Source of the DNA: a bacterium
GTDB lineage: Bacteria; Patescibacteriota; Minisyncoccia; UBA6257; GWB1-50-10
Direction of reading: 5' to 3'
DNA: 59,843 nucleotides
Assembly: GCA_030647415.1 (NCBI GenBank)
Contig: JAUSKB010000016.1
Location: forward strand, 1-59,843
Shown here: positions 14,086 to 50,519 of the stretch, piece after piece
Position numbering within the stretch: the first letter of the stretch is position 1
Layout of the letters: the number at the start of each line of letters is the position of its first letter
Notes under the pieces: generated by a model
What the model was told of the DNA's origin: nothing
Seen by the model: only the letters and a program-made list of their open reading frames with translations
Databases searched by the model: none
Made by a program: the position numbers and the translations under genes

Positions 14086-14086
14086 A

Positions 14087-20504: not shown

Positions 20505-20653
20505 AGAGTAATCGCGAATAATGCTAATTATTGCAAATAATGCGAATGAATGCGCACTCCATTCGCATCAGTATACCTGCTATTCGCATTATTCGCGATT
20601 ACTCTTTTCATTCGAATTATTACCTTTGCTATTCGAATTATTCGCGATTACTC
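20505..20653. repeat. 149-bp complex palindrome family C-prime, copy 1
   Basis: Left arm gagtaatcgcgaataatgc. Two alternative right arms: attcgcattattcgcgattactc and attcgaattattcgcgattactc. It overlaps the last codons of proS. Confidence 0.85.
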
Positions 20654-21897: not shown

Positions 21898-22046
21898 GGA
21901 GTAATCGCGAATAATGCTAATTTAACTCAAATAATGCGAATAAATGCGCTCTATTCGCATTATTACCTCTACAATTCGCATTATTAGCGATTACTCTCTT
22001 CATTCGCATTATTATATCTGCAATTCGCATTATTAGCGATTACTCC
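21898..22046. repeat. 149-bp complex palindrome family C-prime, copy 2
   Basis: Same organisation and orientation as 20505-20653, and roughly 80 percent identical by eye. It abuts the proS ATG. Confidence 0.85.
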
Positions 22047-22047
22047 T

Positions 22048-22079
22048 TATAGTACCCAAATTTCCGCATTCGGCAACTT
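22048..22079. repeat. 32-bp direct repeat, left flank of the hicAB cassette
   Basis: tatagtacccaaatttccgcattcggcaactt; matches 22814-22845 at 30/32 positions. Confidence 0.85.
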
Positions 22080-22092
22080 ACCACAAATGGAC

Positions 22093-22338
22093 CTAAAGTT
22101 GCCGCCGGATGTCATCCCATGTCACCCCGCTGTACCGCTCGATTTCCTTGAGCACGTATGAGAGAACCTCCTTCGGGAGCTTCTGCGGTATAGTGACCGA
22201 TTTTTGGGTCGGCGGCCAGGTAGTTTTGTAGTGGCTGCCGTCCCCGCCCCGCTCGTCGATCAAAAACCCAAGACGCCGGAGCGCCTTGATGAGTTTCCTC
22301 CGCTTCAATTCCCCGGGTAATTCGCTATGCGGCGGCAT
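22093..22338 (-). CDS. hicA: HicA/YcfA-like toxin (type II TA)
   Basis: 81 aa from the ATG at 22338: ...KRRKLIKALRRLGFLIDERGGDGSHYKTTW...VTIPQKLPKEVLSYVLKEI. It overlaps the upstream antitoxin ORF by 14 nt. Confidence 0.6.
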   Translation of the reverse strand: MPPHSELPGELKRRKLIKALRRLGFLIDERGGDGSHYKTTWPPTQKSVTIPQKLPKEVLSYVLKEIERYSGVTWDDIRRQL

Positions 22339-22684
22339 ACGCTTCCCCCCGGTCGGTCTCACGGCGAATCGCCGCTTCGGGAGCGTATGCGGACGGCACG
22401 CTGAACGCCGTAAGGATGCCGTCTTTAACACTCCGGTCAAGTTCCTCTGGCGTGCGGCCGTGAGCGACGATGCTGCCGTACGTAAAGTTCGCGCTCACCG
22501 AGACGAGTGTGTCGCCCTCGCGGTGATGTTCGAACCGAATCGGGCCGAAGTTCTTGAAGTACCGGTGCAGGTCGAGCAGACCGCTCGGGACGGTCGAGGT
22601 ACCCAAGATGAACTTCCCAACCCGGTCCTTTGCAACTTTGAAGATGTTCATGGGACTTTTAGATTTATTCTCCTGCCACAGCAT
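22325..22684 (-). CDS. hicB: HicB-like antitoxin (UPF0150-type fold)
   Basis: ...VSANFTYGSIVAHGRTPEELDRSVKDGILTAF resembles the HicB N-domain. It is paired with and overlaps hicA. The start could be 22684 or 22651. Confidence 0.5.
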   Translation of the reverse strand: MLWQENKSKSPMNIFKVAKDRVGKFILGTSTVPSGLLDLHRYFKNFGPIRFEHHREGDTLVSVSANFTYGSIVAHGRTPEELDRSVKDGILTAFSVPSAYAPEAAIRRETDRGEAYAAA

Positions 22685-22698
22685 CCGTCAACACGTTG

Positions 22699-22707
22699 AT
22701 TATACCA
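22699..22707 (-). promoter_or_regulatory. extended -10 box candidate for hicBA
   Basis: The minus strand reads TGGTATAAT about 15 nt upstream of the 22684 ATG. Confidence 0.35.
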
Positions 22708-22758
22708 CATGGTCAGCCGATTTCCTTTCACGCCCATCCACCGCCTACTCACTCGTTA

Positions 22759-22780
22759 TTATCGAAGTCGGACTTCGATA
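22759..22780. repeat. hairpin family H copy 2
   Basis: ttatcgaagtcggacttcgata. With its flanks (ctcgttatt...gattc) it matches 25371-25408. Confidence 0.85.
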
Positions 22781-22813
22781 GATTCAAGAGTTTTGACTGG
22801 CGCATTGCCTCTC

Positions 22814-22845
22814 TATACTACCCAAATTTCCGCGTTCGGCAACTT
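22814..22845. repeat. 32-bp direct repeat, right flank of the hicAB cassette
   Basis: tatactacccaaatttccgcgttcggcaactt. Confidence 0.85.
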
Positions 22846-24590: not shown

Positions 24591-24627
24591 CACAGCAATT
24601 TCCCCACATCCTGCACCGTGACGATGG
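24591..24627 (-). pseudogene. relic copy of the rseP 3' end
   Basis: cacagcaatttccccacatcctgcaccgtgacgatgg matches 25421-25457 at 33/37 positions. It would encode ...TIVTVQDVGKLL, compared with rseP ...AIVTVQDVGKLL*. Confidence 0.8.
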
Positions 24628-24643
24628 TACGGCGGCCCCGTGT

Positions 24644-24952
24644 TTACCCTACGAGGCCGACCTGCTTATCAAATACATTCGCAATCTTGTGCAGTGTTGC
24701 GATCGAGAAACTGTGTGTTCCTGACTCAATCCGGGCAATGACCGACTGGGGCATGTCGGCTTTGGCCGCAACCTCCTTTTGGGTCATCTTCCGTTCCTGG
24801 CGCAATGTTTTGATTTCGTGCGCCAATTGTAATCTGCTCATTTCTTCGGAAAATGTTTTGCGAAATCGCTCACTCTTGAGCTTTTCTTTAATAACCGCAT
24901 CGAGAGAAATTGAATTGTATTTTTTGGCGATTTTTTTCATCTTTTTATGCAC
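24644..24952 (-). CDS. higA: XRE-family HTH antitoxin (HigA-like)
   Basis: ...RQERKMTQKEVAAKADMPQSVIARIESGTHSFSIATLHKIANVF, a Cro/C1-type HTH. Located downstream of the toxin gene. Confidence 0.75.
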   Translation of the reverse strand: MHKKMKKIAKKYNSISLDAVIKEKLKSERFRKTFSEEMSRLQLAHEIKTLRQERKMTQKEVAAKADMPQSVIARIESGTHSFSIATLHKIANVFDKQVGLVG

Positions 24953-24963
24953 GCGATAGATAG

Positions 24964-25257
24964 TCAGCGAGTTATGTCTTTATAGATTTTCTCTGCTCGT
25001 TCGATAATTCGCTTGGGTGTTTTCTGGCTCTTTTTCCTGAAGGCATCTACAACATACCCCGTTGATCCCACGAAGAAAAATACGATTCGATACTGTTTCA
25101 CCACCATTTCCCTAATTTTCCCTTTCAGTGGTTTAATAAGCAATCCTTCTGTGCGATTTTCCTGAAGCGACTTAAGGTGAGCAATAATCTTTGCGGTATC
25201 ATCTTCGGGAATCCTTTCGAGAAAATCGGAGGTGTCATCAAGGATCCGTATATTCAT
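24964..25257 (-). CDS. higB: RelE/ParE-superfamily toxin, Gp49/HigB-like
   Basis: ...GKIREMVVKQYRIVFFFVGSTGYVVDAFRKKSQKTPKRIIERAEK, the typical Gp49-like signature. The toxin-first gene order is as in higBA. Confidence 0.75.
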   Translation of the reverse strand: MNIRILDDTSDFLERIPEDDTAKIIAHLKSLQENRTEGLLIKPLKGKIREMVVKQYRIVFFFVGSTGYVVDAFRKKSQKTPKRIIERAEKIYKDITR

Positions 25258-25381
25258 AGCTTGCGCGCGCTATTTTGTCGACCTTTATACACTAACACCA
25301 ACAGTATAGCAATATTGCTATACTTGTAAAGAGGTGTTGTTCCGTCAGTTTTTGTCTCGTGTTTCGTGTCTCGTTATTATA

Positions 25382-25403
25382 TTATCGAAGTCGGACTTCG
25401 ATA
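25382..25403. repeat. hairpin family H copy 3
   Basis: ttatcgaagtcggacttcgata, 17 nt downstream of the rseP stop. Confidence 0.85.
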
Positions 25404-25419
25404 GATTCGATTTCTACTA

Positions 25420-26481
25420 CTACAGCAGTTTCCCCACGTCCTGCACGGTGACGATGGCCATGAGGAGAAGGAGGGCGGCGAACCCGACGCCGTTTATGGC
25501 TATCTGTACTCGGCGCGGGATGGGGCGCCGAATGAGCTTTTCAACAAGCAACACGAGGACCCGGCCGCCGTCCAAGGCCGGAAACGGAATCAGGTTCAGG
25601 ATGACCAGGTTCAGCGAGATGAGGGCGAGGAGCTGGAAAAAGTAGACCGCGCCGAGCTCGCCCGTGCGGACGGCAAAGCTCACAATACCGACCGGCCCGC
25701 TCACCTTCTGGAGCACGCCGGGCTCCGTAAAAACATTTGTGAGGAGGTACCAGAAGCTCGATGCCACCTCCCCGAGCGTCCGGAAGGTCTGGAAGAAGGC
25801 CTCGGCAATCGCCTGGTGAATCGGGAGGGCCGGAAACCCGATGGAGGTGAGCGCAATACCGAGTGAGCCCTCGCCCGGCGGCGGGGTCGCCCGCCCGACG
25901 AGCGTGACGGTGCGCGTCCCGCCCGCACCGGTGAGTTCAAGCGAGAGCGTCTTCCCCGCCGCGGACCTGGCGAGCGCGACGAATGCGTCGGCGTCTATTG
26001 GGTCCGCGAGCGCCGTCTCTCCCCATGTGGCGCGGGCGATGACATCACCCTGCACGATGCGTGCTTCAGCCGCGGGCGAACCGGACGAGACGCCACCCAC
26101 GATGAGATGCTCCGGCGCGCCGGCGGCGAAGACACCCGTCAAAATTACAAATCCGAAGAGGACGTTCATCGCTACACCCGCAAGGAGAATACCGATCCGC
26201 TTCCAGAGTGGTTTCGCTCCAAAGCGCCGTTCCGGCTCATCGCCCACCTCCTCTTCCGACTTCCCAGCCGGCTGTTCCCCGTGGATGCGCACGAACCCGC
26301 CAAACGGCAGGGCGTTCACGCTGTATGTCGTCTCGCCCACCGTCCGGCTCCAGAGCCGCGGCGGGAACCCGATACCAAACTCGTCCACGCGCACTCCGGC
26401 CGCCTTTGCCGCCAAAAAATGGCCCAGCTCATGGACCAGGATGACGAGCGACAAACCGATGATGGATAAAAAAATAATCAT
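25420..26481 (-). CDS. rseP: RIP metalloprotease RseP (site-2 protease, M50)
   Basis: HELGHF zinc motif in the first TM helix, a PDZ-like middle region, and the C-terminal motif LNLIPFPALDGG. Confidence 0.92.
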   Translation of the reverse strand: MIIFLSIIGLSLVILVHELGHFLAAKAAGVRVDEFGIGFPPRLWSRTVGETTYSVNALPFGGFVRIHGEQPAGKSEEEVGDEPERRFGAKPLWKRIGILLAGVAMNVLFGFVILTGVFAAGAPEHLIVGGVSSGSPAAEARIVQGDVIARATWGETALADPIDADAFVALARSAAGKTLSLELTGAGGTRTVTLVGRATPPPGEGSLGIALTSIGFPALPIHQAIAEAFFQTFRTLGEVASSFWYLLTNVFTEPGVLQKVSGPVGIVSFAVRTGELGAVYFFQLLALISLNLVILNLIPFPALDGGRVLVLLVEKLIRRPIPRRVQIAINGVGFAALLLLMAIVTVQDVGKLL

Positions 26482-28020: not shown

Positions 28021-28150
28021 AAATCCTAAATCCTAATTTCTAAACTCTAAACAAATTCGAAACTCTAAATCTCAAACAATGCGAAGGGCTCTGAATCCGT
28101 TTCGAATTTCGTGCTTGGGATTTGTTTAGAATTTAGGATTTAGTGCTTAG
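28021..28150. repeat. spacer-filling imperfect palindrome (ctaaa/tttag words)
   Basis: aaatcctaaatcctaatttctaaactctaaacaaattcgaaac ... gtttcgaatttcg..gatttgtttagaatttaggattt. It fills the gap between the holB start and the mreB2 stop. Confidence 0.75.
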
Positions 28151-28153
28151 AGT

Positions 28154-29161
28154 TTACCTTTTAGAGAGCAGTGTCCGCTTGTAGACATCGAGGTGGTTTA
28201 AAATGGTGGCCGTCCCCTTCGCCACGCATAAAATCGCGTCTTCCGCCACATAGGCGGCGACGCCGAGCGAGCGCTTGAAGAACTCCTGAAGGTCACGGAG
28301 CTGGGCGCTACCGCCGGACAGGATAATCCCCTTCTCCATGATGTCGGCGGCGAGCTCCGGCGGCGTCACATTGAAGACGGACTGGACCGCGTTCATGATC
28401 TCCACGAGGTGGGGATTGATGGCCTCCGAAACCTCGTTCGACGTGATGGTAAGGTCTTTCGGGAGCCCCGAGGGGAGGTCTCGGCCGCGCACCTTCATCT
28501 CGATCTTCGAGCGGTTCGAAAGCGCCGTCCCCACCCCAATCTTCACGTTCTCCGCCGTCGTGTCCCCGATGGCAAGCCCATATTTCTTCCGGATATAGTC
28601 GCTGATGGACTGGTCGAACCGGTTTCCGGCGACCCGAAGCGAGGACCAGGTCACGATGCCGCCCAGGGAGATGACGGCAACCTCCGTCGTGCCGCCACCC
28701 ATGTTCACAATCATATTCCCCTCCGCCGAGTGGATGGGGATGCCCGCGCCGAGTGCCGCGAGGAGCGGCTCCTTCACGAGGTAAACCTCGCGCGCACCCG
28801 CCTCCTTCGCCGCGTTCATCACGGCGCGGTACTCGGTCGAGGTAATGCCCGCCGGCACCGAGATGACCACCTCGGGCCGGAACAGGTTCAGGGAGCCGAT
28901 GCTCTTCGCAATGAAGTACTTCAGCATCGCCCGCGTGATGTAGTACTCGGCGATGACACCATCTTTCAGGGGCCGGTAGGTCACGATGTTGTCCGGCGTG
29001 CGGCCGACCATCTCCTTCGCCTCGGTGCCCACGGCGAGCACGGTGTTGTCGGGCAGTCGGAGTGCGACGGCCGTCGGCTCGTTGATGACGATACCCTTGT
29101 CCGGCAGGAAGACAATCGTGTTCGTCGTGCCGAGGTCGATGCCAATCTTGCGGATGAACAT
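28154..29161 (-). CDS. MreB/Mbl paralogue (second actin-like rod-shape protein)
   Basis: [18 protein letters not shown]..., NMGGGTTEVAVISLGG, SGGSAQLRDL. Confidence 0.93.
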   Translation of the reverse strand: MFIRKIGIDLGTTNTIVFLPDKGIVINEPTAVALRLPDNTVLAVGTEAKEMVGRTPDNIVTYRPLKDGVIAEYYITRAMLKYFIAKSIGSLNLFRPEVVISVPAGITSTEYRAVMNAAKEAGAREVYLVKEPLLAALGAGIPIHSAEGNMIVNMGGGTTEVAVISLGGIVTWSSLRVAGNRFDQSISDYIRKKYGLAIGDTTAENVKIGVGTALSNRSKIEMKVRGRDLPSGLPKDLTITSNEVSEAINPHLVEIMNAVQSVFNVTPPELAADIMEKGIILSGGSAQLRDLQEFFKRSLGVAAYVAEDAILCVAKGTATILNHLDVYKRTLLSKR

Positions 29162-29318
29162 GAGTGGAGGAGAGTAATCAGTAATTGGTAAAAGGTAATT
29201 GGAGGCTCAAAACCAACATACGCGAGTTCCTATTACCTATTACTTGCTACTTATTACCTGTTACCAAGTACCTATTTCTATCCACCCCACTTTACCGCCA
29301 TAGCGCCGTTTTCGCAAG

Positions 29319-29349
29319 CAAAAAGCCGCCATATACTGAAATGGCGGCT
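29319..29349 (-). terminator. rho-independent terminator of 29372..29584
   Basis: Minus strand: agccgccat-ttcagtat-atggcggct followed by TTTTT. Confidence 0.6.
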
Positions 29350-29371
29350 CCCTCCTTAAAACCCCCCCCAC

Positions 29372-29584
29372 CTATCCAGATACGAAGGTTATATACAGGA
29401 ATGCCTCAACAATGCGCCGGGGAATTCCACAAGAATGCATATTTCGGGCGATGTCCGACGGCTTCTGACCAACGAACGAATGGCAGAACTTTCGAGCGGC
29501 AGTATCAATCTCCGATTGACGAGAAGATCCCGTTGGTCGATACATTCCATTCCAAAGTAATTTCACATCACTCTGATCGATCAT
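29372..29584 (-). CDS. small hypothetical protein (possible HTH)
   Basis: The ATG at 29582-29584 has a perfect AGGAGG 5 nt upstream, and the gene has its own terminator. Sequence MIDQSDVKLL...GQKPSDIARNMHSCGIPRRIVEAF. Low GC. Confidence 0.5.
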   Translation of the reverse strand: MIDQSDVKLLWNGMYRPTGSSRQSEIDTAARKFCHSFVGQKPSDIARNMHSCGIPRRIVEAFLYITFVSG

Positions 29585-29697
29585 ACTTCCTCCTAAGATG
29601 TTTGAAATTCTTAACACTGAGAAACATAATACTTTGTAATCTAATTTTTGTCAATAATGCGCGGCGCGCGGCGAAGTCGTAAACTGAACCCTGACAC

Positions 29698-31125
29698 ATG
29701 CCCCTCCGGCTCCGGAAAACCTTCTTCTACCTCTGCCTCGTCGCCTTCCTCGCCGTCGGCGGCTACCTCGTACTCTTCACGCGGGGGCTCGTCTTCGACC
29801 TGCGGCACTTTGAGCTCGTCCCCACGGGCGCGCTCTACCTGAAATTCACCCCGTCCGACGCGACACTCCTCGTGAACGGCAAGGAGCGGCCGGCCGGCGC
29901 CAACATCCTCTCCCCCGGCACATTCGTGGACAACCTCGCGCCCGGCACATACACAGTCACCGTGACCCGTCCGAATTTTTCGACGTGGACAAAGGCGCTC
30001 ACGGTATCTTCGACAATGGTGACCGCCGCAAGCCACATCCGACTCTGGCCCACTCACGCCCCCGCCACACCCGTCGCCATCGATATCGCGAATTTTTGGC
30101 TCACCGGGGAAGGTGCGGTGCTCCAAGATGCCTCGGGGACGTTGCGGCTCGCGCGTCGAACCATTCGCGGCTCCACAGTCGTTGAAAGCGACCAGGGTTC
30201 ATCACGACTCCTGACTGAGGGGCAGGGCCAGTTCTACCTCATGGATCTCTCGGCGCCGGACACCACAACAAATATTTCGGCACTCTTCGTCTCCCTCCGT
30301 AGCAGGACTATTTCACCAGTTGGTCCTGTTGCAACCGGCACACTGGTACGGTCGGGTTCGACTACCTCAACAAACTTATTGCAAGCAAGCTCGCCGCAAG
30401 CCGAACACGTCCGCGCCGTCCTCCTGCATCCCTTCAGCGGACAGAAGCTTATTGTCGGCACCGATGCTGGCCTCTACGAGCTCGACACAAAAAAGGTTTC
30501 ACTCGAACGGCTCGCGAGCGTGGACCGATTCACCGCGCTCGCAAAGAGCGGCGGTGATGCGTTTATTATGAACGGTTCGAGCACGATGACAGTGGTGAAT
30601 CTTATCCTCCATACCAGCGTCACCTACGCGTTCCCGCTTTCTTCCGGGCTTCGGTCGCTCATCGCTTCGCCAAACGGGAGCTACCTCGCGGCGATTTCCG
30701 ATACCGGCGTCCTGTCGGTGCTGGACCGGACCGCCGGGACATTCACGCCCGTCGCGCACAACGTCGTAACTGCTACCATCGCCCCGGATAACACAGCGCT
30801 CATCTTTCTCTCAACCGACGGGCGCTTGAACCTGTACTACCTCTCGGACGTCGCCGGGGACGAGCTTTTCACTGCGGGGCAGCTCACGGCGAGCGCCGGC
30901 CCGCTGCCGGTGCCGCCGGCGGGAACGCTCACCGCGCTTCCAAGTTTCTCCGGAACGGTGCTGGTACAAGCCAGCGGCACGTTGCTTGCCGCGGAGACCG
31001 ACCTCCGCGGACAGGTCAACAGCACCGCCCTCGCCGCGCACGTCCGTTCGTTTGCGATTCGCGACACCACCCTCTACCTGCTCTCGACCGACGGTACCTT
31101 GAGCTCCATGAACCTCGCGCCGTGA
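29698..31125 (+). CDS. membrane-anchored PEGA-domain / beta-propeller-like protein
   Basis: N-terminal TM helix (FFYLCLVAFLAVGGYLVLF), a PEGA-like segment (ATLLVNGKERPAG...LAPGTYTVTVTRPNFSTW), and repetitive beta-rich sequence downstream. Confidence 0.6.
   Translation: MPLRLRKTFFYLCLVAFLAVGGYLVLFTRGLVFDLRHFELVPTGALYLKFTPSDATLLVNGKERPAGANILSPGTFVDNLAPGTYTVTVTRPNFSTWTKALTVSSTMVTAASHIRLWPTHAPATPVAIDIANFWLTGEGAVLQDASGTLRLARRTIRGSTVVESDQGSSRLLTEGQGQFYLMDLSAPDTTTNISALFVSLRSRTISPVGPVATGTLVRSGSTTSTNLLQASSPQAEHVRAVLLHPFSGQKLIVGTDAGLYELDTKKVSLERLASVDRFTALAKSGGDAFIMNGSSTMTVVNLILHTSVTYAFPLSSGLRSLIASPNGSYLAAISDTGVLSVLDRTAGTFTPVAHNVVTATIAPDNTALIFLSTDGRLNLYYLSDVAGDELFTAGQLTASAGPLPVPPAGTLTALPSFSGTVLVQASGTLLAAETDLRGQVNSTALAAHVRSFAIRDTTLYLLSTDGTLSSMNLAP
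31023..31125. repeat. 103-bp direct repeat, copy 1 (functional 3' end of 29698..31125)
   Basis: caccgccctcgccgcgcacgtccgttcgtttgcgattcgcgacaccaccctctacctgctctcgaccgacggtaccttgag... recurs at 31838-31940. Confidence 0.9.
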
Positions 31126-31151
31126 GCTACGGCCGGGGTACCCATGCATCT

Positions 31152-31745
31152 ATGAAAAACTATCAGAATATAAAAGCGATTGCATTTGATTTCTGGGACG
31201 TCTTTGCAACTATGAATCCCCCCATGAACCATTACCTGGAAGAACGTGGCGTCTCAATTAAAAAATACTTAGACAAAATTCACAATCTTATCGTATCCCA
31301 CGACCTTGGAAAGATAGACGAAAAGCAGTTCCTTCAGGCATGCTCTCGAATAGTGGGGGTGGAAATCCCGTACGACCAGTGCCGGTACATATACCGAGAT
31401 GGGACCTTGAACGCGCCGCTAATTGAGATTATAAAAAAACTGAAGGCGAGATATAAAATCGCGCTTCTCTCGAATAATAATAGAGAATATGTCCAAGAGC
31501 ACATTTACAAGCCCGGCTTGGATAAACTTTTCGACGTAATGGTCGTTTCCTACGAAGCGGGCTACCAAAAACCTGCCCCTGAAATATACAAAAGCCTCAT
31601 TCAGAAGCTGCAAGTAGAACCAAGCGAGATACTGTTTCTTGATGACGACACAGGAAAGTTAGGAGCGGCAGAGGTGCAAGGAATCCAAACGCTTGCTTAC
31701 AAAGGAGAGGAAACAGATAAAATCCTGGAACACTTTTCTAGTTAG
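31152..31745 (+). CDS. HAD-superfamily hydrolase
   Basis: Motif I AFDFWDVF, motif II LLSNNN, motif IV FLDDDTGKLGAAE. Low GC relative to neighbours. Confidence 0.7.
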   Translation: MKNYQNIKAIAFDFWDVFATMNPPMNHYLEERGVSIKKYLDKIHNLIVSHDLGKIDEKQFLQACSRIVGVEIPYDQCRYIYRDGTLNAPLIEIIKKLKARYKIALLSNNNREYVQEHIYKPGLDKLFDVMVVSYEAGYQKPAPEIYKSLIQKLQVEPSEILFLDDDTGKLGAAEVQGIQTLAYKGEETDKILEHFSS

Positions 31746-31811
31746 AAAGTCCTGCCTACCAGTAGGCAGGCTCGGTTCGTTCCACCAACAGGCGGACCTG
31801 TCTTGGGGAGT

Positions 31812-31833
31812 GTGGTATGACATGTACCACCCC
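31812..31833. repeat. family P palindrome, degenerate copy 2
   Basis: gtggtatgacatgtaccacc. Confidence 0.6.
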
Positions 31834-31837
31834 TTTC

Positions 31838-31940
31838 CACCGCCCTCGCCGCGCACGTCCGTTCGTTTGCGGTTCGCGACACCACCCTCTACCTGCTCTC
31901 GACCGACGGTACCTTGAGTTCCCTGGATCTCTCGCCGTAG
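31838..31940 (+). pseudogene. 103-bp direct repeat, copy 2 (orphaned 3' end of 29698..31125)
   Basis: Near-identical over the first approximately 80 bp, diverging in the last approximately 20 bp. It ends in its own in-frame stop (tag at 31938-31940). Confidence 0.85.
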
Positions 31941-32229
31941 ATACGAGCTTGAGCGTCAAAGGGGGGTTATAAAGGAAGCGAGTTGAAAAAACTTGCGTTT
32001 TCTTTATATTTATGTTTCCATGAAAACAGTTAAAATCCCATTCACAAAATAGGAGAGGAAGTTGGAAGAAACCATTGGGCGTGTCTCTGGACTCATCGTA
32101 GTCCTGAGCGTCGTGCCCTATGCCATTCGGACATGGCAAGGGAAGGTACACCCGAACCCCACAAGCTGGTTCCTCTGGACTCTCATAGGGTTCGTGCTTC
32201 TTGTTACCTACCGTGACTCCGGCGCAACG

Positions 32230-33311
32230 GGGTTAAGGAAACTTTCGTGTGGGTAAGGACAGGCAAAAGCGCTTGATGTCGTCGAGCTCTTTTGCCTGTT
32301 TTGACAGCAAGATAGACATACGCAAGTCTATCTTGCATGAAACACCCATACTGCCCAGGCTGTTCGCGTCGCATGGAGCGCCACGGAAAAACAGCGGCGG
32401 GTACCGAACGGTACCGCTGTCCAAAGTGTCGGAAGACCACTGTCATCCACCGAACGGACACCCGGAAGCGGCATCTCCGCGACCACTTTGTCGACTGGCT
32501 CACCGGCACGGACTCAAAGCAAAAGATCGCCGAGAAGCTCGGCGTTTCCCGTCAGGCATTATCTAAGGAGTTCCAGCAGTTCTTCGGCGTTGGCCTCGAG
32601 CCGCCGATTCCCACCGAACTCACGGCGAGGATCCTCATCGTGGACGGCACGTACATTGAGGGGCGGGCACTCTGCGCTCTGGTCGCCGTGACGGAGCGGG
32701 ACCGGATCTTTTGGCGGTTCGCCACAGAAGAGCGCTACGGCACCTGGCTCGCCTTCCTCGAGTCGTTCCCGCCACCGAAGGTTGTTGTGGCCGACGGTCA
32801 GAAAGGCATGCAGCGCTTCGTGAAACATCACTGGCCTCAAACCGCCTTCCAGCGCTGTCACTTCCATCTGGTCATGCTCGTCACCCACTATCTCACCCGG
32901 AATCCCTCGGAAGAGGTGGGGCGAGACATTCTCGACCTCGTGCATCGTCTTAAGTATGTGAAAGCGCCTGCAGAGCGCGACCGGTGGCTCCTACTCCACC
33001 GAATCTGGGAAAAACGGTACGAAAAGGTTTTCGCCGAACGAACCGCAGGAGGAGTATACGCACATCGGAAGCTACGAAGCGTACGGTCGGTGCTCCGCCG
33101 CGCCACACCCCAGCTCTTCACGTATTTGGACTACCCAGGGTGCCCAAACACGACCAACCTCGTTGAGGGATGGGTGAATACCGCGATTGCGGAAGGCATC
33201 GGCAGGCACCGGGGACTCACCCTGGAAAAGAAGAAAACGCTCGTGTCGGTTATCCTCTCGAATTTGAAGCGGCCGACGAGAGAAAAACCCACACGAAAGT
33301 TTCCTTAACCC
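32230..33311 (+). mobile_element. IS1-family insertion sequence (single-ORF type), 1082 bp
   Basis: Perfect 25-bp TIRs gggttaaggaaactttcgtgtgggt (32230-32254 / 33287-33311). 8-bp TSD gcgcaacg (32222-32229 / 33312-33319). Confidence 0.9.
32337..33308 (+). CDS. IS1-family transposase
   Basis: The N-terminal zinc ribbon CPGCSRRMERHGKTAAGTERYRCPKCRKT mirrors IS1 InsA (CPSC..NGKSTAGHQRYLCSHCRKT). DDE-like region ILIVDGTY...VVADGQKG...TNLVEGW. Confidence 0.75.
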   Translation: MKHPYCPGCSRRMERHGKTAAGTERYRCPKCRKTTVIHRTDTRKRHLRDHFVDWLTGTDSKQKIAEKLGVSRQALSKEFQQFFGVGLEPPIPTELTARILIVDGTYIEGRALCALVAVTERDRIFWRFATEERYGTWLAFLESFPPPKVVVADGQKGMQRFVKHHWPQTAFQRCHFHLVMLVTHYLTRNPSEEVGRDILDLVHRLKYVKAPAERDRWLLLHRIWEKRYEKVFAERTAGGVYAHRKLRSVRSVLRRATPQLFTYLDYPGCPNTTNLVEGWVNTAIAEGIGRHRGLTLEKKKTLVSVILSNLKRPTREKPTRKFP

Positions 33312-33763
33312 GCGCAACGTCAAACATATGGCCTGCGGTATTCGGGTTCACAAATCCACTCCTCATCATCATTCTCCTCATAAAGAACGGGGAACGGTGG
33401 AAGAGACTGGAGCGGTTCGAGGTGGTCTGTTTTATCCTCGGTCTTGTATCGCTCGCGGGGTGGCTACAATTCCAAGGTGAGCAACGGCTGATACAGTATG
33501 CGCTCTACACGGCGATCGTCGCGGATTCATGTGCAGCAATTCCCACGATCATGTTTGTCTGGCGCTTTCCCTTGGAGGACAGGCCGTTCGCATGGCTGCT
33601 TTTCTCGGTCGGTTACGGACTAGCGATCTTCTCCATCACAGAGCACCATGTTAGCAACTATATCCTTCCAATCTACATGGCACTTGGCTCATTTTTCGTT
33701 TCACTTCCACTCGTGCTCGAGCGTGTGAAACAGCGAGTTGTTTGGAGAGAGTGGTTGTAAGAG

Positions 33764-36321: not shown

Positions 36322-36513
36322 GCGAATTTTTACTGAGCGAAGCGAAGGCTAAAAATTCAGCACCCCGCTTGATACGTTTGAAACGGAGGGCACTCCGGAT
36401 ACTCGACTGTATCCTATTTTGAGAAATATTGTCATTGGTTCGGCGATATCTAGCGGGGTAAGGTTTGATGGCTGTATTTTCTGCGCTTTCAGCTTGAAAA
36501 TCCAGACCAAGCC
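36322..36513. repeat. about 195-bp long-armed palindrome family F5, copy 1
   Basis: Left end gcgaatttttactgagcgaagcgaaggctaaaaattcagcaccccgc. Right end gcggggtaaggtttgatggctgtattttctgcgctttcagcttgaaaatccagaccaagccc. It abuts the rpsD stop. Confidence 0.85.
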
Positions 36514-36514
36514 C

Positions 36515-37114
36515 TTATCGGGCATAAAACTGGCTCACAACTGTTATGTCGAAGGGGAAATTCGTGTCGCTGGTGGTCGATGTTGCGAAAACGTTTCCGC
36601 TCATCGTGTCGGTATTGAGCTTGAGCCATGTGGGCGGCGTGAATTCTTTGAGGCGTTCCGAAAGCTCTTCAAACTGCTTCGAGTCGCGGGATTCGGGACG
36701 GATGGACACGGCGTCGCCGGGACGGAGCAGGTGTGATGCCACGCTCGAGCGGCGACCGTTCACCAGGATGTGCCCATGATTCACCAGCTGCCGCGCGATG
36801 CGCGGCGACTTCGCGAGCCCGAGCTGAAACACGACCTGGTCCAACCGATGCTCTAGCGTCTCGCGAATCGCCTGCGGCGACGGCTCGGCGAAAATCCGGC
36901 GCATCTGCCGGTCGGTGAGGCCGAAGTACCACTGAATCTTCTGCTTCTCCATGAGCTGCTTACCGTAGTCGGTTTTCGTCTGCCGCCGCTCGCCGTGCTG
37001 GCCCGGACGCGACGGCCGGCGTACCATGACGCACTTCGGTGAATTGCAACGGTCCGCCTTCACAAAGAGCTTCACGCCCAATGCCCGTTCTTGTTTTTCG
37101 GTGATTCGTTTCAT
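36515..37114 (-). CDS. rpsD: 30S ribosomal protein S4
   Basis: Zinc-knuckle N-terminus (ADRCNSPKCVMVRRPSRPGQHG) and an S4 RNA-binding domain (RLDQVVFQLGLAKSPRIARQLVNHGHILVNG). Confidence 0.95.
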   Translation of the reverse strand: MKRITEKQERALGVKLFVKADRCNSPKCVMVRRPSRPGQHGERRQTKTDYGKQLMEKQKIQWYFGLTDRQMRRIFAEPSPQAIRETLEHRLDQVVFQLGLAKSPRIARQLVNHGHILVNGRRSSVASHLLRPGDAVSIRPESRDSKQFEELSERLKEFTPPTWLKLNTDTMSGNVFATSTTSDTNFPFDITVVSQFYAR

Positions 37115-37310
37115 GCCGATTTTATTTGAGCGGAGCGAAATTTAAAATCGAGCACCCCGCACCACTTTTGCAGCAAGGTAGTGATTCAATGATGGTGTGT
37201 GTGATAGATGTCATATTTTTCAGTAATGATTCGTGAGGCAAAAGTGGTGCGGGGTAAGGTTTGGTGGCTGTATTTTCTGCGCCTTCGGCTTGAAAATCCA
37301 GACCAAGCCC
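37115..37310. repeat. long-armed palindrome family F5, copy 2
   Basis: Inner perfect 18-bp stem accccgcaccacttttgc / gcaaaagtggtgcggggt. The outer right arm is near-identical to 36453-36513. It exactly fills the gap between the rpsK stop and the rpsD start. Confidence 0.88.
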
Positions 37311-37763
37311 TTATACGCGTCGCCGCTTCTTCGGCCGTGGACCGTTGTGCGGGATGGGCGTGCAATCGCGCACCGCAGTGATATTGAAACCTTTAGCTGC
37401 GAGCGTCCGCATCGCGGAATCTCGGCCTTTGCCAATACCCCGCAACACGATTTCCACGTTCGTTGGCCCCGACCGCTTCACTTTCTCCGCAATCGCCTCC
37501 GCAACCTTCGAGGCCGCAAATGGCGTCGCCTTCTTCGGACCGGAAAACCCGAGCGACCCCGCGGACATCCATGCTACCACGCCACCCTTCAAATCGGTCA
37601 CGGTAATCATGGTGTTATTGAACGAAGTGTGGATGTAAATCTTGCCGGCGTCCAAGCGCTGCCTGGTGCTCTGCGCCGACTTGGCAGCCGCGGTTGCTTC
37701 GACCGCCTCGGATTCCTTGATGAGGTCGTCCTGGTTCTTCGTGATGGTCTTTTTCTTTCCCAT
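37311..37763 (-). CDS. rpsK: 30S ribosomal protein S11
   Basis: ...GKIYIHTSFNNTMITVTDLKGGVVAWMSAGSLGFSGPKKATPFAA... Confidence 0.95.
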   Translation of the reverse strand: MGKKKTITKNQDDLIKESEAVEATAAAKSAQSTRQRLDAGKIYIHTSFNNTMITVTDLKGGVVAWMSAGSLGFSGPKKATPFAASKVAEAIAEKVKRSGPTNVEIVLRGIGKGRDSAMRTLAAKGFNITAVRDCTPIPHNGPRPKKRRRV

Positions 37764-38161: not shown

Positions 38162-38163
38162 AA

Positions 38164-38274
38164 TGATACAAATATACTAATGGTACGAATGATACTAATC
38201 ATACGAATGGGAATTCGTTGGTGTTATTAGTATTATTCGTATCATTCGCATGAATTCGTATATTGGTATCGCAC
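38164..38274. repeat. palindrome family C, copy C3
   Basis: gatacaaatatactaatggtacgaatgatactaatcatacgaatggg ... ttagtattattcgtatcattcgcatgaattcgtatattggtatc. It fills the gap between the rpsM start and the rpmJ stop. Confidence 0.88.
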
Positions 38275-38387
38275 TAGCCCTGCCTCTGCTTATGCTTCTT
38301 GTTCACACAAATAACGAAGACACGACCACGGCGTCTGACCGTTTTGCATTTCATGCAGATTTTCTTTACTGATGAGCGTACCTTCAT
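38274..38387 (-). CDS. rpmJ: 50S ribosomal protein L36
   Basis: Not in the ORF track (too short). The minus strand encodes [37 protein letters not shown], canonical L36 in its usual place between infA and rpsM. Confidence 0.9.
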
Positions 38388-38898: not shown

Positions 38899-40611
38899 CT
38901 ACTCCACCACGACCGTGATTTTCCGGGAATCGTTCGGCGCCCGGCGGACCCAGAACGGCCACAGATGCACGGTTGCCTTCGAGATGCCGGGAATGTCTGA
39001 AAGCATTGAGTTGAGCTTCGTTTCATCCTTGCCCAGTATGAGCGTGGTAAGTGCAGTGCTATCGAGCACATACCGGAGCGCTACCGTGCCGGATGCCGCG
39101 ACCGTGAGTGTACCACGATCGAAGTCGACTGTTGGCACCTCGAACGACGCATCGATCGAGTCCACGGTGAGCGACGAGGACTGCTGCGCCGCCGCACGCA
39201 CCGCCCGTGCGCCAACCGCCTCCTTGAACATGCGGTCATCAAAGACAATCTGCTTGAGCGACGCCTCACCGAACAACCGAAACGTACCGGAATCGTCCCC
39301 CGACGAGCGGAGGCGGCGCAGAACGACGAACCGCGTTGCGTCACGGAGCTCCGTAAAATGCTCATTTGCGGTGAGGAGCACCAGCTCGCTCACGAGCGCA
39401 TCACGGAGCGACGCATCGAGCGACTGCACCGCCCTCGCCTCCTCTTCCTTCGTGGGCGCTGCCCGTTCGCCCATGAAACCGCCCCGGAGTGCGTCCGGCG
39501 CCGCCGCGGTGAACGTATCATATTTCGGCGTACCCTGGAATCCCGGAATCCGCCATCCGTCGCTCGCAGGGACATTATGCGCCTCCCCGGCCGCATCAGC
39601 CGTCACCGAAACAGTCGTCGTGGACGATTGGATGGTTCCCCCAGAAACCCGTGCACCGGGAATGACCGATCGCTGGTTTAAGCGGAACACCGTGCCCTCC
39701 GGCGAGACAAACCGGGTCGTTGCGACCAGCACTTGCGGTTCCGAACTGAACGCGTTCGTCACCACGAGTGTTCCCGACGCCTTCGTGGCCACACGTTCCG
39801 TCCCTGCCGTCGGGAAGGTGAGCTCCAACGTGCGCCGTGCGTCGAACGACTGTGCAGGCAGCACGATGCGCGTGCCGGTACTCTCGGGCGCAGTGACACG
39901 GACCGAGGCGTCGATCAATTCCATGAACGGGATGGGAATCCGTGCGGCGCGAATCGTGACGGTCGCGCGCGGCACCACCGCGGTCGCCACCCACCAGCCT
40001 CCCCCGAGTACCGCGGCGGCGCATACGGAAATCACCAGGACGCGGAACCAGTGCGGTGACCGCTTGGGACGCTCCGGCTCCGGCTCTGGAACCGCGGCAG
40101 GTTGTGTGTCCTTCGTCGAACGTTCGCTGTTTTCAATTTCGAGTTTTGACTCTTCGCGCTCAACTTCTTGACGTTCGATATCAGACGTTAGACGATCTGC
40201 GGCAGATTCCACCGCTTGCGCATTCAATCCACCTCGCCCGCCTCGCCGAGACGTCGAGTCGAGGCTGGGCTGGAGCCGCGACGAAGCGGACCCGACGAGT
40301 GGGCGAGTCGAGGCGGGCCGTGCGATGATATCGGAAACAGCCCGCTCCTTCGAGTGGAAGAATGCGTTGCGGGATGGGATCCCGGCGAGCGACGCGAGTT
40401 CGAGGATATGGTCGTCCGCCGACTCGATCATGAGCTCCTTCCCCGCGTGCTCGGCTTCCCGGCGCAAGAGGTGGAAATTCTGCACCGAAACGCCAATGTC
40501 GGCTCCGGACGGGATGGTAAGCATAATCCTCGTGGAATCCTCGGTAAGGATCTTTTCCACGATTGCCGGGAGGCTATCCCCGCGCGCAATGAGTATTTTT
40601 TTCTCGGTCAT
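38899..40611 (-). CDS. hypothetical bitopic envelope protein carrying an in-frame family A element
   Basis: 570 aa: a cytoplasmic N-domain, one TM helix (VLVISVCAAAVLGGGWWV), and a large beta-rich C-domain. The insert ...SASSRLQPSLDSTSRRGGRGG... is element A3. Confidence 0.65.
   Translation of the reverse strand: MTEKKILIARGDSLPAIVEKILTEDSTRIMLTIPSGADIGVSVQNFHLLRREAEHAGKELMIESADDHILELASLAGIPSRNAFFHSKERAVSDIIARPASTRPLVGSASSRLQPSLDSTSRRGGRGGLNAQAVESAADRLTSDIERQEVEREESKLEIENSERSTKDTQPAAVPEPEPERPKRSPHWFRVLVISVCAAAVLGGGWWVATAVVPRATVTIRAARIPIPFMELIDASVRVTAPESTGTRIVLPAQSFDARRTLELTFPTAGTERVATKASGTLVVTNAFSSEPQVLVATTRFVSPEGTVFRLNQRSVIPGARVSGGTIQSSTTTVSVTADAAGEAHNVPASDGWRIPGFQGTPKYDTFTAAAPDALRGGFMGERAAPTKEEEARAVQSLDASLRDALVSELVLLTANEHFTELRDATRFVVLRRLRSSGDDSGTFRLFGEASLKQIVFDDRMFKEAVGARAVRAAAQQSSSLTVDSIDASFEVPTVDFDRGTLTVAASGTVALRYVLDSTALTTLILGKDETKLNSMLSDIPGISKATVHLWPFWVRRAPNDSRKITVVVE
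40232..40319. repeat. GC-rich palindromic element family A, copy A3
   Basis: Core identical to A1/A2. The right end gggcgagtcgaggcgggcc is the reverse complement of the A2 left end. Confidence 0.88.
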
Positions 40612-43609: not shown

Positions 43610-43617
43610 GCAACTAT

Positions 43618-48506: not shown

Positions 48507-49928
48507 TTATTCTTCTCCCGTCTCCACCTTGATGGAGAGTTCGTGAAGCTGAGTAAGCGTTGCCTCCGAAGGTGCGTCCATCACCGCAATCTGGCCGCTC
48601 GAGGTCGCCGGAAAGGCCATCACCTCGCGGATACTCGATTCTCCCAGGAGCACCATCATGAGCCGGTCGATGCCTGGCGCGATGCCGCCGTGGGGCGGGA
48701 CGCCGTGGCGGAACGCCGTAAGCATGTGGTCGAACTGCGCTTTTTGTGTCGCGTTGAAGCCGATGAGGTCAAATACTTTCTCCTGCACCTCCGGGCGGTG
48801 GATACGGATGCTTCCCCCGCCGACCTCGTAGCCGTTCAGGACCATGTCGTGCTGGAGGCCGCGGACCTTCGTGGGATCGGTATCGAGAAGTGGTACGTCG
48901 TCGGGGTGCGGCGCCGTGAACATGTGGTGCGACGGGGCGAACTTCGCCGCCCCCGAGCCATGAAAGAAATCCTCCTTCGACTGCTCGGTGAAGAGCGGAA
49001 AATCAATGGTCCAGGAAAATGCGAGCTCGTTCGGGTCTTTTTTGTCCTTCCGAAGGTCCGGTTTGTCCGTACCGTACGTCGCTACCGCCTCCGTATGGGA
49101 GAGCCGCGGCCACGGCTTCTTCGTGATGTGCTTCTCGGGGAAGATGGATTCGGCGAGCTTCGTGAACAGGTCTTCGGCGAGCCGGAGAATATCCTCCTGC
49201 GTCACGAACGACATCTCGAGGTCGAGCTGGGTGAACTCCCCGTACGCCCGGTCCGCGCGTGGGTCCTCGTCGCGGAAACAGCGCGCAATCTGGAAGTACC
49301 GCTCGAATCCCGCAACCATGAGGAGCTGTTTGTACTGCTGGGGCGACTGTGGGAGGGCATAAAACTTGCCGGGCTGGAGGCGGGAGGGCACGAGGAAATC
49401 GCGCGCGCCCTCGGGTGTGGTCTTCGTAAGAATGGGCGTCTCTATCTCGGTGAATCCCTCGTTCGAGAGATACTCCCGGATGAACCGGACCGCCGCATGC
49501 CGAAGCTTCAGGTTTTTCTGCATCCGCGGCCGGCGGAGGTCAAGGTAGCGGTACTTGAGGCGAAGCTGCTCGTCCACATCGTGGCCGTCGGTGTCGAGCG
49601 GGAAGGGCGGGGTTTTCGCCTCATTCAAAACCTCGATCGCGGTGACCGAAACCTCGTACGCGCCGTTCGGGAGATTCGGATTCTCCATGCCCGCCGGGCG
49701 TTTCTTCACCATACCGGTGAGCCGCACCACCCACTCGCTCCGGAGCGTCTGGCCCACCTCATGCGCCGCGACCTCCTTGGGCGTGAAGACAACCTGCGCG
49801 ATGCCGCTTCGGTCCCGGAGGTCTATAAAAACAAGCTTCCCGTGGTCGCGCCGGACATCCACCCATCCCTCGAGCGTGACCTGCTCGCTCTCATGGGCGC
49901 CGATGTCCTTTGTGAGGGTTCGTTTCAT
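48507..49928 (-). CDS. aspS: aspartyl-tRNA synthetase (short, no GAD insertion)
   Basis: OB domain (VTLEGWVDVRRDHGKLVFIDLRDRSG) and class II motifs (FRDEDPRADRAYGEFTQLDLEMSF; GGIAPGIDRL). The likely start is MKRTLTKD at 49928. Confidence 0.93.
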   Translation of the reverse strand: MKRTLTKDIGAHESEQVTLEGWVDVRRDHGKLVFIDLRDRSGIAQVVFTPKEVAAHEVGQTLRSEWVVRLTGMVKKRPAGMENPNLPNGAYEVSVTAIEVLNEAKTPPFPLDTDGHDVDEQLRLKYRYLDLRRPRMQKNLKLRHAAVRFIREYLSNEGFTEIETPILTKTTPEGARDFLVPSRLQPGKFYALPQSPQQYKQLLMVAGFERYFQIARCFRDEDPRADRAYGEFTQLDLEMSFVTQEDILRLAEDLFTKLAESIFPEKHITKKPWPRLSHTEAVATYGTDKPDLRKDKKDPNELAFSWTIDFPLFTEQSKEDFFHGSGAAKFAPSHHMFTAPHPDDVPLLDTDPTKVRGLQHDMVLNGYEVGGGSIRIHRPEVQEKVFDLIGFNATQKAQFDHMLTAFRHGVPPHGGIAPGIDRLMMVLLGESSIREVMAFPATSSGQIAVMDAPSEATLTQLHELSIKVETGEE

Positions 49929-50046
49929 TCCTTCATAGTAATATCGGAGACGTCCGACGTCCAATGGACATCGGGCGTCCGAATATTAGGTTCCATGAGT
50001 TTCTGACCACAACAAAAAAGGAGCGGTTTCCCGCTCCTTGCAACCA

Positions 50047-50283
50047 TCATCTTTGTAAAATCTCGACTTCCGGATACCTTGCGGGATCGAATCCGCGGAG
50101 CTTGATCTCCTTGAGGATTAAATCATTCACAAAAGAAGTGAAACTGTTATTTTTCGTCTTAAGGTTCTGCTGGCTAACAAAAATTTTCACATATTGCGAC
50201 AGGTTCTTAGGGAGAAAAATGGTGGTCCTTTTCTTCTCTCCATACAACATGAACACTTCCGCTTCCGGTCTGCCCCTTTTCAT
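50047..50283 (-). CDS. small ribbon-helix-helix-like protein (cassette gene)
   Basis: The ATG at 50281-50283 is preceded by GGAGG. MKRGRPEAEVFMLYGEKKRTTIFLPKNLSQYVKIF... has a beta-strand then helices, typical of CopG/RHH. Low GC. Confidence 0.45.
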   Translation of the reverse strand: MKRGRPEAEVFMLYGEKKRTTIFLPKNLSQYVKIFVSQQNLKTKNNSFTSFVNDLILKEIKLRGFDPARYPEVEILQR

Positions 50284-50420
50284 ATTTTCCTCCATTGTTA
50301 ATGTCCCATTGAAAAATGTATTTTATTGTTATCACTCTTTTATTCTCGTGTCAACCATGTTTTATTACAACATATTCGAATTTACAGAGGCGAAGCCTCT
50401 GTGTGCAAGCCTCTGTGTGC

Positions 50421-50519
50421 AACGAGTTTGCCGTGGTCGCGGCGGACATCCACCCAGCCCTCGAGCGTTATGGTCTGACCTTCGTGCGCGGTGATGTCTT
50501 TCGCGAGGGTGCGTTCCAT
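50421..50519 (-). pseudogene. orphan copy of the aspS 5' end
   Basis: Encodes MERTLAKDITAHEGQTITLEGWVDVRRDHGKLV, compared with aspS MKRTLTKDIGAHESEQVTLEGWVDVRRDHGKLV. The 89-bp DNA match is 50431-50519 against 49840-49928. Confidence 0.85.

Follow-up and report, generated by a model that had tools for sequence, protein, structure and literature searches.

A 714-nt segment of low GC content carrying one intact gene for a HAD-superfamily phosphatase lies between two copies of the 3′ end of a PEGA/beta-propeller-like envelope gene in an uncultured bacterium of the candidate phyla radiation (CPR); the upstream copy terminates the functional gene, and the downstream copy is an orphan. The locus is part of the metagenomic contig JAUSKB010000016.1 (assembly GCA_030647415.1), which was analysed over its whole length of 59,843 nt (the window; all coordinates refer to its forward strand). 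The genomes of CPR bacteria are tiny and densely packed with genes, and few mobile elements can be recognised in them. Within these 60 kb we found four small cassettes, each bracketed by a duplicated piece of its neighbour, and a fifth was found at aspS in another phylum. Recombination with foreign DNA, and not a classical mobile element, is probably what brings small accessory genes into this genome. As the specific route, we give about an even chance to gene-end displacement via recombination with incoming homologous DNA that differs by the presence or absence of the cassette.

A repeat search and BLAST self-alignment of the window revealed a 101-nt direct repeat (31023-31123 and 31838-31938, plus strand) with an offset of 815 nt, in which 95 of 101 positions (94%) are identical. 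BLAST stretches the pair to 31023-31131 and 31838-31945 (109 columns, one gap, 92.7% identity, E = 9e-39), and no other sequence like the repeat occurs within the window. The left copy forms the functional, in-frame 3′ end of the PEGA-like open reading frame (ORF; 29698..31125, plus strand, 475 aa), which finishes with ...TLSSMNLAP* and the stop TGA. The right copy together with its original TAG stop (31838..31940, plus strand) translates to ...TLSSLDLSP*; because it has no start codon and is preceded by an in-frame stop nine codons upstream, this displaced 3′ end is untranslatable alone and therefore a dead fragment. Over the first 81 nt the copies differ at a single position (31057, A/G), and the other five mismatches are packed into 14 nt (31104-31117; Fisher p = 3e-4 for the clustering), leaving perfectly identical runs of 34 and 46 nt. 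The functional and orphan tips differ at only three of seven residues. Identity stops at the T of the stop codon (31123/31938), which delimits the insert to 31124-31837 (714 nt, plus strand). The boundary thus falls inside the stop codon, and the first two inserted bases, GA, complete the new TGA of the PEGA-like gene. A sequence-only reading of this DNA had proposed 103-bp repeats, 712 bp apart, that are near-identical over about 80 bp and diverge only in the last codons (SSMNLAP* versus SSLDLSP*). Alignment confirmed this divergence pattern and the repeats as such, with their dimensions refined to 101 shared nt and a 714-nt insert.

The inserted segment has no counterpart at the same place in related lineages. 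The gene order RRF-holB-mreB / PEGA / rpsI-rplM-rplQ-rpoA-rpsD-rpsK is kept in both related lineages (loci L001 and L003), and the homologues of the PEGA-like protein share 77% identity with it in L001, L002 and L012 and 47% in L003. No HAD gene is present at the syntenic mreB/PEGA/rpsI locus in any of these four. In L003 the gap between PEGA and rpsI measures 76 nt. In L001, L002 and L012 two unrelated small ORFs lie between PEGA and rpsI, and the repeat sequence is single and followed by homologous downstream bases. For the window, a synthetic empty-site junction would join ..CGCCGT to AGATACGAG... All empty-site relatives share only 75-90% DNA identity with the window and are different species-level lineages. 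A 26-mer taken from the repeat retrieved only the organism of L001 again from metagenome_contigs (L012) and nothing from genome_contigs, and no same-species empty site or donor allele was present among the collections searched.

With L001 as outgroup, the ancestry of the two copies can be resolved. In L001, the end of the gene and the next 15 nt align (82%) with the right copy and with what lies immediately 3′ of it, so the right copy is the original end, still attached to its native downstream DNA. The two window copies share ancestry: twelve sites common to both differ from L001. Beyond these, the left copy has one private change and an altered stop, and its last 22 coding nucleotides are identical to L001; the right copy has five private changes within 14 nt. 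The functional copy therefore retains the ancestral tail and the five derived changes sit in the orphan, where one of them alters A474, a residue invariant in all three homologues. The proposals that the HAD segment is an insertion and that the right copy is an orphan of the PEGA-like 3′ end are both borne out by these comparisons, the first through empty sites in other lineages and not in the same population. A possible template for the variant tail of the orphan at 30242-30255 (13 of 14 positions matching) was rejected, as by our own estimate about two such matches are expected by chance per 5 kb.

The 712 nt between the two stop-terminated ends have a GC content of 45.4%, compared with 62% in the PEGA-like gene and 63-68% in the flanks of the insert. 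The sole gene of the insert (31152..31745, plus strand, 197 aa) encodes an intact HAD-IA phosphatase (PF00702, 4e-17; PF13419; TIGR01509 above cutoff) with conserved catalytic motifs. It starts 26 nt past the upstream stop codon, without any promoter-like site in between, and directly 3′ of its own stop codon lies a perfect 9-bp stem-loop (31751..31770, plus strand). An imperfect palindrome (31812..31830, plus strand; 'family P'), of which one relative exists at 10377-10398, is located 7 nt 5′ of the right repeat. The content originally proposed for the interval (lower GC, HAD gene, stem-loop and family P palindrome) was thus recovered. HAD is probably expressed by read-through from the upstream gene, and the downstream hairpins would end the transcript. 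No terminal inverted repeats were detected at the ends of 31124-31837, the insert contains no mobility gene, and a nearby insertion sequence (IS) lies outside the repeats.

The closest homologues of the HAD protein occur in Candidatus Jorgensenbacteria (up to 83% protein identity) in other gene contexts, with two paralogues within one genome and variable loci that often adjoin tRNA genes or a His_Phos_1 gene. The GC content of the HAD gene is 41-47% in every host. Nucleotide similarity between the window and the other HAD loci comprises the coding sequence and ~9 nt upstream, whereas the flanks are not shared; a conserved mobile unit around the gene was rejected on these grounds, and HAD is best described as a wandering gene without a defined element around it. 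An exact-protein look-up of a 207-aa HAD variant returned no record. A 27-33-nt motif that brackets HAD in L011 and L007 was also considered as a cassette boundary and rejected, since it precedes several genes there and is absent from the window; we judged it to be a leader or regulatory motif. In other Jorgensenbacteria, GTTCnnACrTCGTTCAnnCCCCGCAGC is found 20-30 nt upstream of HAD, alpha/beta hydrolase, His_Phos_1 and RibD_C genes (copies at 3901-3927, 4893-4919 and 7056-7082 in L007, and at 1923-1949 and 2575-2601 in L011), a distribution that suggests a common leader or regulon.

The anatomy of the HAD locus recurs within the window. Self-alignment, as the sequence-only reading had proposed, yielded seven local direct-repeat pairs in 60 kb, compared with 0.86 per 60 kb across 83 other CPR loci (1.19 Mb), and three pairs besides that of HAD bracket low-GC cassettes. 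In the comparison set, the repeats of L042 were discarded as internal repeats of a large surface protein, and those of L074 and L078 as putative paralogue matches by appearance. The repeats of the four cassettes measure 36, 37, 99 and 101 nt; three of the cassettes sit at gene ends and the remaining one at a promoter. The same signature had been claimed for the higBA and aspS cassettes, and both were recovered, the former with a 36-nt copy of the rseP 3′ end and the latter with 99 nt of the aspS 5′ end.

The higBA cassette (24592..25457, minus strand) encodes HigB (HigB-like Gp49, 25257..24964) and the HTH antitoxin HigA (24952..24644), both on the minus strand, between the functional rseP 3′ end (25422-25457) and its 36-nt orphan (24592-24627). 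The orphan retains an ancestral-type ...LLWV* ending (TGG GTT TGA; TGG GGT TAG in L003), whereas the functional copy is shortened by two codons and stopped by TAGTAGTAG of the insert. The higBA insert therefore brings no gene end of its own. The hicAB cassette (22043..22845, minus strand) carries HicA (22440..22093) and a putative HicB (22684..22325), both on the minus strand, and its 37-nt repeat (22043-22079 and 22809-22845) resembles the proS promoter; the gap between proS and rseP amounts to 3.5 kb in the window compared with 47 nt in L003. The upstream ends of the higBA and hicAB cassettes share a sequence of ~40 nt (GAATCTATCGAAGTCCGACTTCGATAATA..ACGAG) that holds the palindrome ATCGAAGTCSGACTTCGAT and may represent a common upstream module or terminator. 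Three copies of this palindrome were observed (25380-25408, 22757-22785 and 11030-11066).

In the aspS cassette (49830..50519, minus strand), the orphan is a 5′ end of 33 codons (50519-50421), followed by a low-GC ORF of 82 aa (50295..50047, minus strand), a terminator hairpin and the functional aspS start (49928-49830). The two 99-nt copies share 77% identity, with a longest identical run of 14 nt. Among 80 CPR aspS loci, one from Candidatus Doudnabacteria (L025; JACPFQ010000003.1, 9025-10120) likewise has an orphan aspS 5′ end, which begins 808 nt before the aspS start; the interval encodes a PIN toxin and contains a small partner ORF. A second, shorter stub lies further upstream, making the stubs serial. 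The first ~100 nt of aspS are thus one conserved target that was hit in two distant CPR lineages from different phyla with different cargo. The duplicated pieces extend over 99 nt in the window and ~118 and ~35 nt in L025, and these differing end-points argue against a fixed recombination site. The motif GACGTCnGACGTC is present upstream of aspS in L025 and also upstream of the functional aspS of the window.

Other low-GC ORFs in the window (53161-53475, 47032-47349, 29162-29697 and 115-998) are without flanking repeats, and two further repeat pairs were rejected as members of the same class. The first is a repeat of 66 nt at rpsD (36453-36518 and 37249-37314, minus strand, 95% identical), which lies between genes and starts one base ahead of the TAA stop codon of rpsK and of rpsD. 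Each copy is followed by a variable stretch (~130 nt) closed by a CCCCGC...GCGGGG stem. The relative L004 has merely 5 nt between rpsK and rpsD, and the repeat gave no Rfam match; a structured intergenic element and a MITE-like insert (miniature inverted-repeat transposable element) are both conceivable. The second, found around proS, is 150 nt long and AT-rich and represents a family of ATTCGCATTATT-type units, dispersed among intergenic regions in both orientations in this genome of 58% GC. Its pair at 20506-20654 and 21899-22046 brackets a class II aminoacyl-tRNA synthetase gene (called proS), and further copies lie at 13984-14089, 15532-15598, 38162-38276 and 43616-43720. Independent Logan contigs break at copies of this family.

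Support for the assembly came from Logan contigs of run SRR13727527, which are 100% identical to the window. One of them (L016) matches 28127-31052 at 100% and ends exactly 30 nt (k-1) into the left repeat, as a real repeat boundary would predict; the break indicates two left contexts for the repeat in the reads. The rseP-higB junction was reproduced by another independent contig (L097), and both copies of the rpsD repeat by further ones.

We then searched the window for machinery. Pfam and NCBIfam scans of ~50 ORFs detected no integrase or recombinase, the sole transposase being that of an unrelated IS1249/IS256-type element, and the cassettes and their surroundings contained no recombinase gene or pseudogene. 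No 9-mer or longer sequence is common to the ends of the HAD, aspS and hicAB cassettes (higBA was outside this comparison), and the 3′ hairpins differ between cassettes. No Rfam family reached its gathering score in the window (attC models included, if Rfam holds them) and no tRNA gene was found by the window scan; the repeats are neither known RNA genes nor tRNA-derived att sites. As for DNA uptake, genes for ComEC (50644-53098; Competence and Lactamase_B domains) and a pilin-like N_methyl protein are present, an observation at the level of gene presence. The sequence-only reading had extrapolated from the recurrent signature to a common, active integration mechanism aimed at gene termini. 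This part found no support: apart from the missing integrase or recombinase, no boundary motif is common to the HAD, aspS and hicAB cassettes, the HAD segment has no terminal inverted repeats and shares no flanks with its homologues, repeat lengths vary, one target is a promoter, and other low-GC ORFs are free of repeats.

The codon positions of the differences between paired copies provide evidence on the mechanism. If the copies had been identical at the start and the orphan had then decayed, differences should be spread evenly over codon positions. The aspS pair of the window instead differs at 7, 2 and 14 first, second and third positions, respectively (10 synonymous and 7 non-synonymous codons; p = 0.009), and the pair of L025 at 6, 3 and 17 (11 synonymous and 6 non-synonymous; p = 0.002). 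The orphan of the window keeps an open frame through all 33 duplicated codons, and that of L025 is in frame over the 28 codons compared, after which a frameshifting indel and an early stop follow. This third-position bias argues that the aspS copies diverged as functional alleles in separate lineages and are not a decayed duplicate; they look like a donor and a recipient allele joined by recombination. The rseP pair shows three synonymous and one non-synonymous change. The HAD pair has one synonymous and four non-synonymous codon changes, which are clustered, and its copies are too similar for the codon-position test; allele exchange at this locus would be suggested by analogy to the aspS cases.

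The displacement reading would combine these observations as follows. DNA of a related cell would be taken up and recombine with the chromosome, the two alleles differing by the presence or absence of the cassette. On one side, ordinary homologous pairing would occur within the conserved neighbouring gene. The other end of the fragment would lie merely ~35-120 nt past the cassette boundary, too short or too diverged to pair, and would be sealed by non-homologous joining, so that a short homologous piece would be kept twice. At the HAD locus, a foreign low-GC segment of 714 bp with a promoter-less HAD gene would thereby have come to lie precisely where the PEGA-like gene stops. The reading frame of that gene would have stayed complete, its stop supplied partly by the insert, and the ancestral last 101 nt with the TAG stop and the native downstream DNA would have been pushed 815 nt downstream as a stub. 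The process would correspond to homology-facilitated illegitimate recombination (HFIR), and repeats of it would have given the higBA, hicAB and aspS cassettes. Cassettes would lie at gene ends because the conserved neighbour serves as homology anchor and only events that spare it survive; survivorship in a gene-dense genome explains this position as well as a machinery aimed at gene termini does, and pairing with the conserved neighbour would do so too. Transformation as the route of uptake, the one-sidedness of the exchange and the assignment of the donor allele are what we infer in this scenario. Displacement of this kind would account for the variable short repeats, the allele-like copies, the lack of an element enzyme or shared boundary motif, the recurrence beside conserved genes and the survival of neighbour-sparing events only.

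HFIR has been reported in natural transformation (de Vries & Wackernagel 2002; Prudhomme et al. 2002, as cited in PMC5361080 and PMC3240628) and was proposed for displaced effector stubs in Vibrio arrays of the type VI secretion system (T6SS; Kirchberger et al. 2017, PMC5361080). In the accounts given in these citing papers, one-sided homology anchors the foreign DNA, the other end is joined without homology, and uptake and RecA suffice, features that would explain the variable end-points and the lack of an element-encoded enzyme at our loci. Experimental HFIR as described there results in integration with insertion-deletions, whereas a retained short duplication is our extrapolation.

Several observations weigh against displacement by one-sided exchange. 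The HAD copies are identical at 80 of their first 81 nt, and such a flap should pair and exchange cleanly. The five changes private to the orphan, confined to 14 nt, mostly non-synonymous and including the one at the invariant A474, look more like local damage or decay than like allelic divergence. The empty sites stem from different species-level lineages and not from the same population, the donor allele was not found in any collection searched, and competence is deduced from gene content alone. Experiments also place the frequency of HFIR orders of magnitude below that of normal recombination (PMC5361080), and four scars per 60 kb are a lot given this rarity.

The main rival, which we consider unlikely, is a circular intermediate of the Campbell type: the repeats would loop out an 815-bp circle holding one repeat and HAD, and after transfer a single crossover between the repeat on the circle and the chromosomal gene end would re-insert it, restore the repeat-cassette-repeat order and displace the resident end. 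This shuttle gives exactly the observed topology with RecA alone, and the perfect runs of 34 and 46 nt in the HAD repeats are enough for homologous crossover; an exchange between repeat positions 35 and 82 would even explain why the private differences lie on opposite sides. Circle-based homologous recombination has likewise been proposed for the displacement of rhs C-terminal tips, a process whose leftovers are core fragments that differ in length (Jackson et al. 2009, PMC2935791). The other cassettes fit poorly, however, as RecA would not cross over efficiently between copies as diverged as those of aspS (77% identity, longest run 14 nt) or in repeats as short as 36-37 nt. Nor does the model account for the origin of the target-gene piece on the first circle; the HAD flanks are not conserved with any other HAD locus, and neither a circle nor a second copy was seen in the data examined.

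A literal long target duplication, in which offset single-strand breaks ~35-100 nt apart capture a linear fragment and fill-in synthesis copies the overhangs, appears distinctly unlikely. Such an insertion would resemble transposition or break repair but involve no dedicated element. It fits the HAD pair: the pattern corresponds to the published class 'insertion with long target duplication' (PMC2853133), the copies are near-identical over 81 nt and have 12 derived sites relative to L001 in common, and the insert boundaries are sharp. Against it, the aspS pairs of two lineages differ chiefly at synonymous third positions, unlike neutral decay; no enzyme is known to make such staggered cuts, and the cluster of five changes in 14 nt requires an extra event.

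Site-specific integration of decayed or miniature elements, moved by a tyrosine or serine recombinase encoded elsewhere and leaving the repeats as attL and attR, is improbable. Gene-end targets and gene-restoring direct repeats are typical of such elements, the aspS start was hit in two phyla, and higBA and hicAB share their ~40-nt palindrome-containing sequence near the upstream end. No recombinase gene or pseudogene lies near the cassettes or in the 60 kb, however, the HAD, aspS and hicAB cassettes have no common core, the aspS end-points differ (99, ~118 and ~35 nt), and rseP is truncated by its insert and not restored. The chance of an assembly artefact, a chimeric join of HAD-bearing and HAD-free strain variants, is very small: although the window is a metagenomic contig and its repeats differ by few bases as strain variants do, the SRR13727527 assembly agrees with the window at every base as far as 31052, breaking off k-1 = 30 nt inside the repeat, independent contigs confirm the rseP-higB junction and both rpsD repeat copies, a chimera requires a read-supported join at 31837/31838, and four analogous structures of differing divergence are unlikely to be artefacts.

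A broader version of gene-end displacement is possible but doubtful. CPR genomes might use a recombinase-free 'address-label' route, in which small cassettes such as toxin-antitoxin pairs and phosphatases travel from lineage to lineage attached to a short piece of a conserved neighbour that guides insertion beside the same gene and displaces the resident end as a stub. The ~100-nt start of aspS, with its hits in two phyla and its serial stubs, would then be a hotspot of a general, homology-addressed gene flow, unlike transposons, integrons or integrases.

Among published patterns, the closest description is insertion with long target duplication (Nobusato et al. 2000; Furuta, Abe & Kobayashi 2010, PMC2853133). 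Restriction-modification systems were the cargo on which this class was defined, and it was ascribed to the DNA cutting that they perform; its small gene blocks lack mobility genes and lie between repeats >30 bp, which frequently cover a start or stop codon, leaving the neighbouring gene intact, and which are present once at the empty site of a relative. Its inserts are often of lower GC, its hosts are mostly naturally competent, and its mechanism is described as unresolved (PMC2853133). The HAD locus has repeats of 101 nt at 94% identity (36, 37 and 99 nt at the other cassettes), an insert well below the 20-kb limit of the class (714 nt, HAD only, no mobility gene), and single-copy empty sites in L001, L002 and L012 and a 76-nt gap in L003, all in relatives at 75-90% DNA identity. 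In place of restriction-modification genes, the cargo consists of a HAD-IA phosphatase, two toxin-antitoxin pairs (HigBA and HicA(B)) and the small 82-aa ORF. The present cases further differ from the class in their CPR host, in aspS copies that act as diverged alleles instead of duplicates, and in empty sites that come from other species-level lineages.

The structure also resembles the displacement known from rhs, contact-dependent inhibition (CDI) and T6SS loci, where, downstream of an intact gene, a small gene intervenes before a dissociated fragment that has a piece of the conserved body and an alternative end. At the HAD locus, the fragment ends differ (SSMNLAP* versus SSLDLSP*) after 81 near-identical nucleotides; fragment length varies between cassettes and serial stubs occur (L025), as in those systems. 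A toxin tip with an immunity gene was not found, the tip having seven residues and the intervening gene encoding the HAD phosphatase. In further contrast to rhs/CDI/T6SS, the targets here include a housekeeping 5′ end (aspS), a protease 3′ end and a promoter. In descriptive terms, the locus is an insertion with long target duplication, and in structure an rhs/CDI/T6SS-type displacement minus its toxin/immunity content.

Other systems are less similar. Phage 21/e14 at icd and tRNA-targeting islands integrate in a gene end, with direct repeats at the junctions and a target that stays functional, but their integration depends on an integrase and on a fixed att core, and the homologous end that replaces the gene's own comes with the element. 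The window scans detected no integrase or other recombinase nearby, comparison of the HAD, aspS and hicAB cassette ends detected no common core, and the rseP insert supplies a stop codon only. The HAD segment likewise does not conform to transposons, ISs or MITEs, having no terminal inverted repeats and a duplication of 101 nt, a length that varies from 36 to 101 nt between cassettes instead of being short and fixed. Like integron cassettes, the cassettes of the window are small single-gene units that have no promoter of their own, would be expressed from upstream and can form a hairpin at the 3′ side; unlike those, they are scattered instead of arrayed and flanked by target duplications. IntI, attI and attC were not found (no integrase, no Rfam match), and the 3′ hairpins differ from one another.

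If the stubs are scars of one-sided exchange, horizontal acquisitions in metagenome-assembled genomes could be counted cheaply by their orphan gene ends, 'displacement' would no longer be confined to toxin loci but include ordinary genes, and the 'long target duplication' pattern would gain a testable mechanism. In practice, assemblies break at such stubs, spurious short ORFs arise from them, and a stub may pass for a gene duplication. What sets the present cases apart is the density of events, the CPR host, cargo other than restriction-modification systems, the recurrence at aspS in two phyla and the codon-position evidence on the mechanism.

The target gene itself encodes a rare protein. It has weak Pfam matches to PEGA, CarboxypepD_reg and a beta-propeller family, just three homologues among 5.8 billion proteins, and no record in an exact-protein look-up. 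Identity to L001 (27870-29161 region) is uneven along the adjacent genes, with 95% in the 5′ part of mreB, 87% in the remaining mreB, 75% (nucleotide) in the PEGA-like gene and 95-98% nucleotide identity in its final 60 nt, which hints at a mosaic history via inter-lineage recombination. The next gene downstream of the orphan (32062..33760) encodes a membrane protein of ~200 aa without a known family and is interrupted by the IS1249/IS256-group IS (32230-33311), which has perfect 25-nt terminal inverted repeats and an 8-bp target duplication (GCGCAACG). The independent contig L015 terminates 36 nt from this element. Unlike the cassettes, the IS exemplifies genuine transposition in the host genome.

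Two further repeat families were observed in the window. A 32-nt motif (GATTnnnnGTAAAnCTCTAACAGGGTnAACCC) occurs in seven copies (8315, 18140, 36292, 38463, 40691, 40728 and 42154). An imperfect palindrome of ~60-65 nt centred on GACGTC (5847-5911, 16456-16520 and 40232-40289; 91-97% identity) lies inside three unrelated minus-strand coding sequences, those of GrpE, PBP2 and a 570-aa protein. It adds ...LQPSLDSTSRRGGRG... to two of the encoded proteins and is read in another frame in PBP2, resembling the in-frame palindromic elements of Rickettsia.

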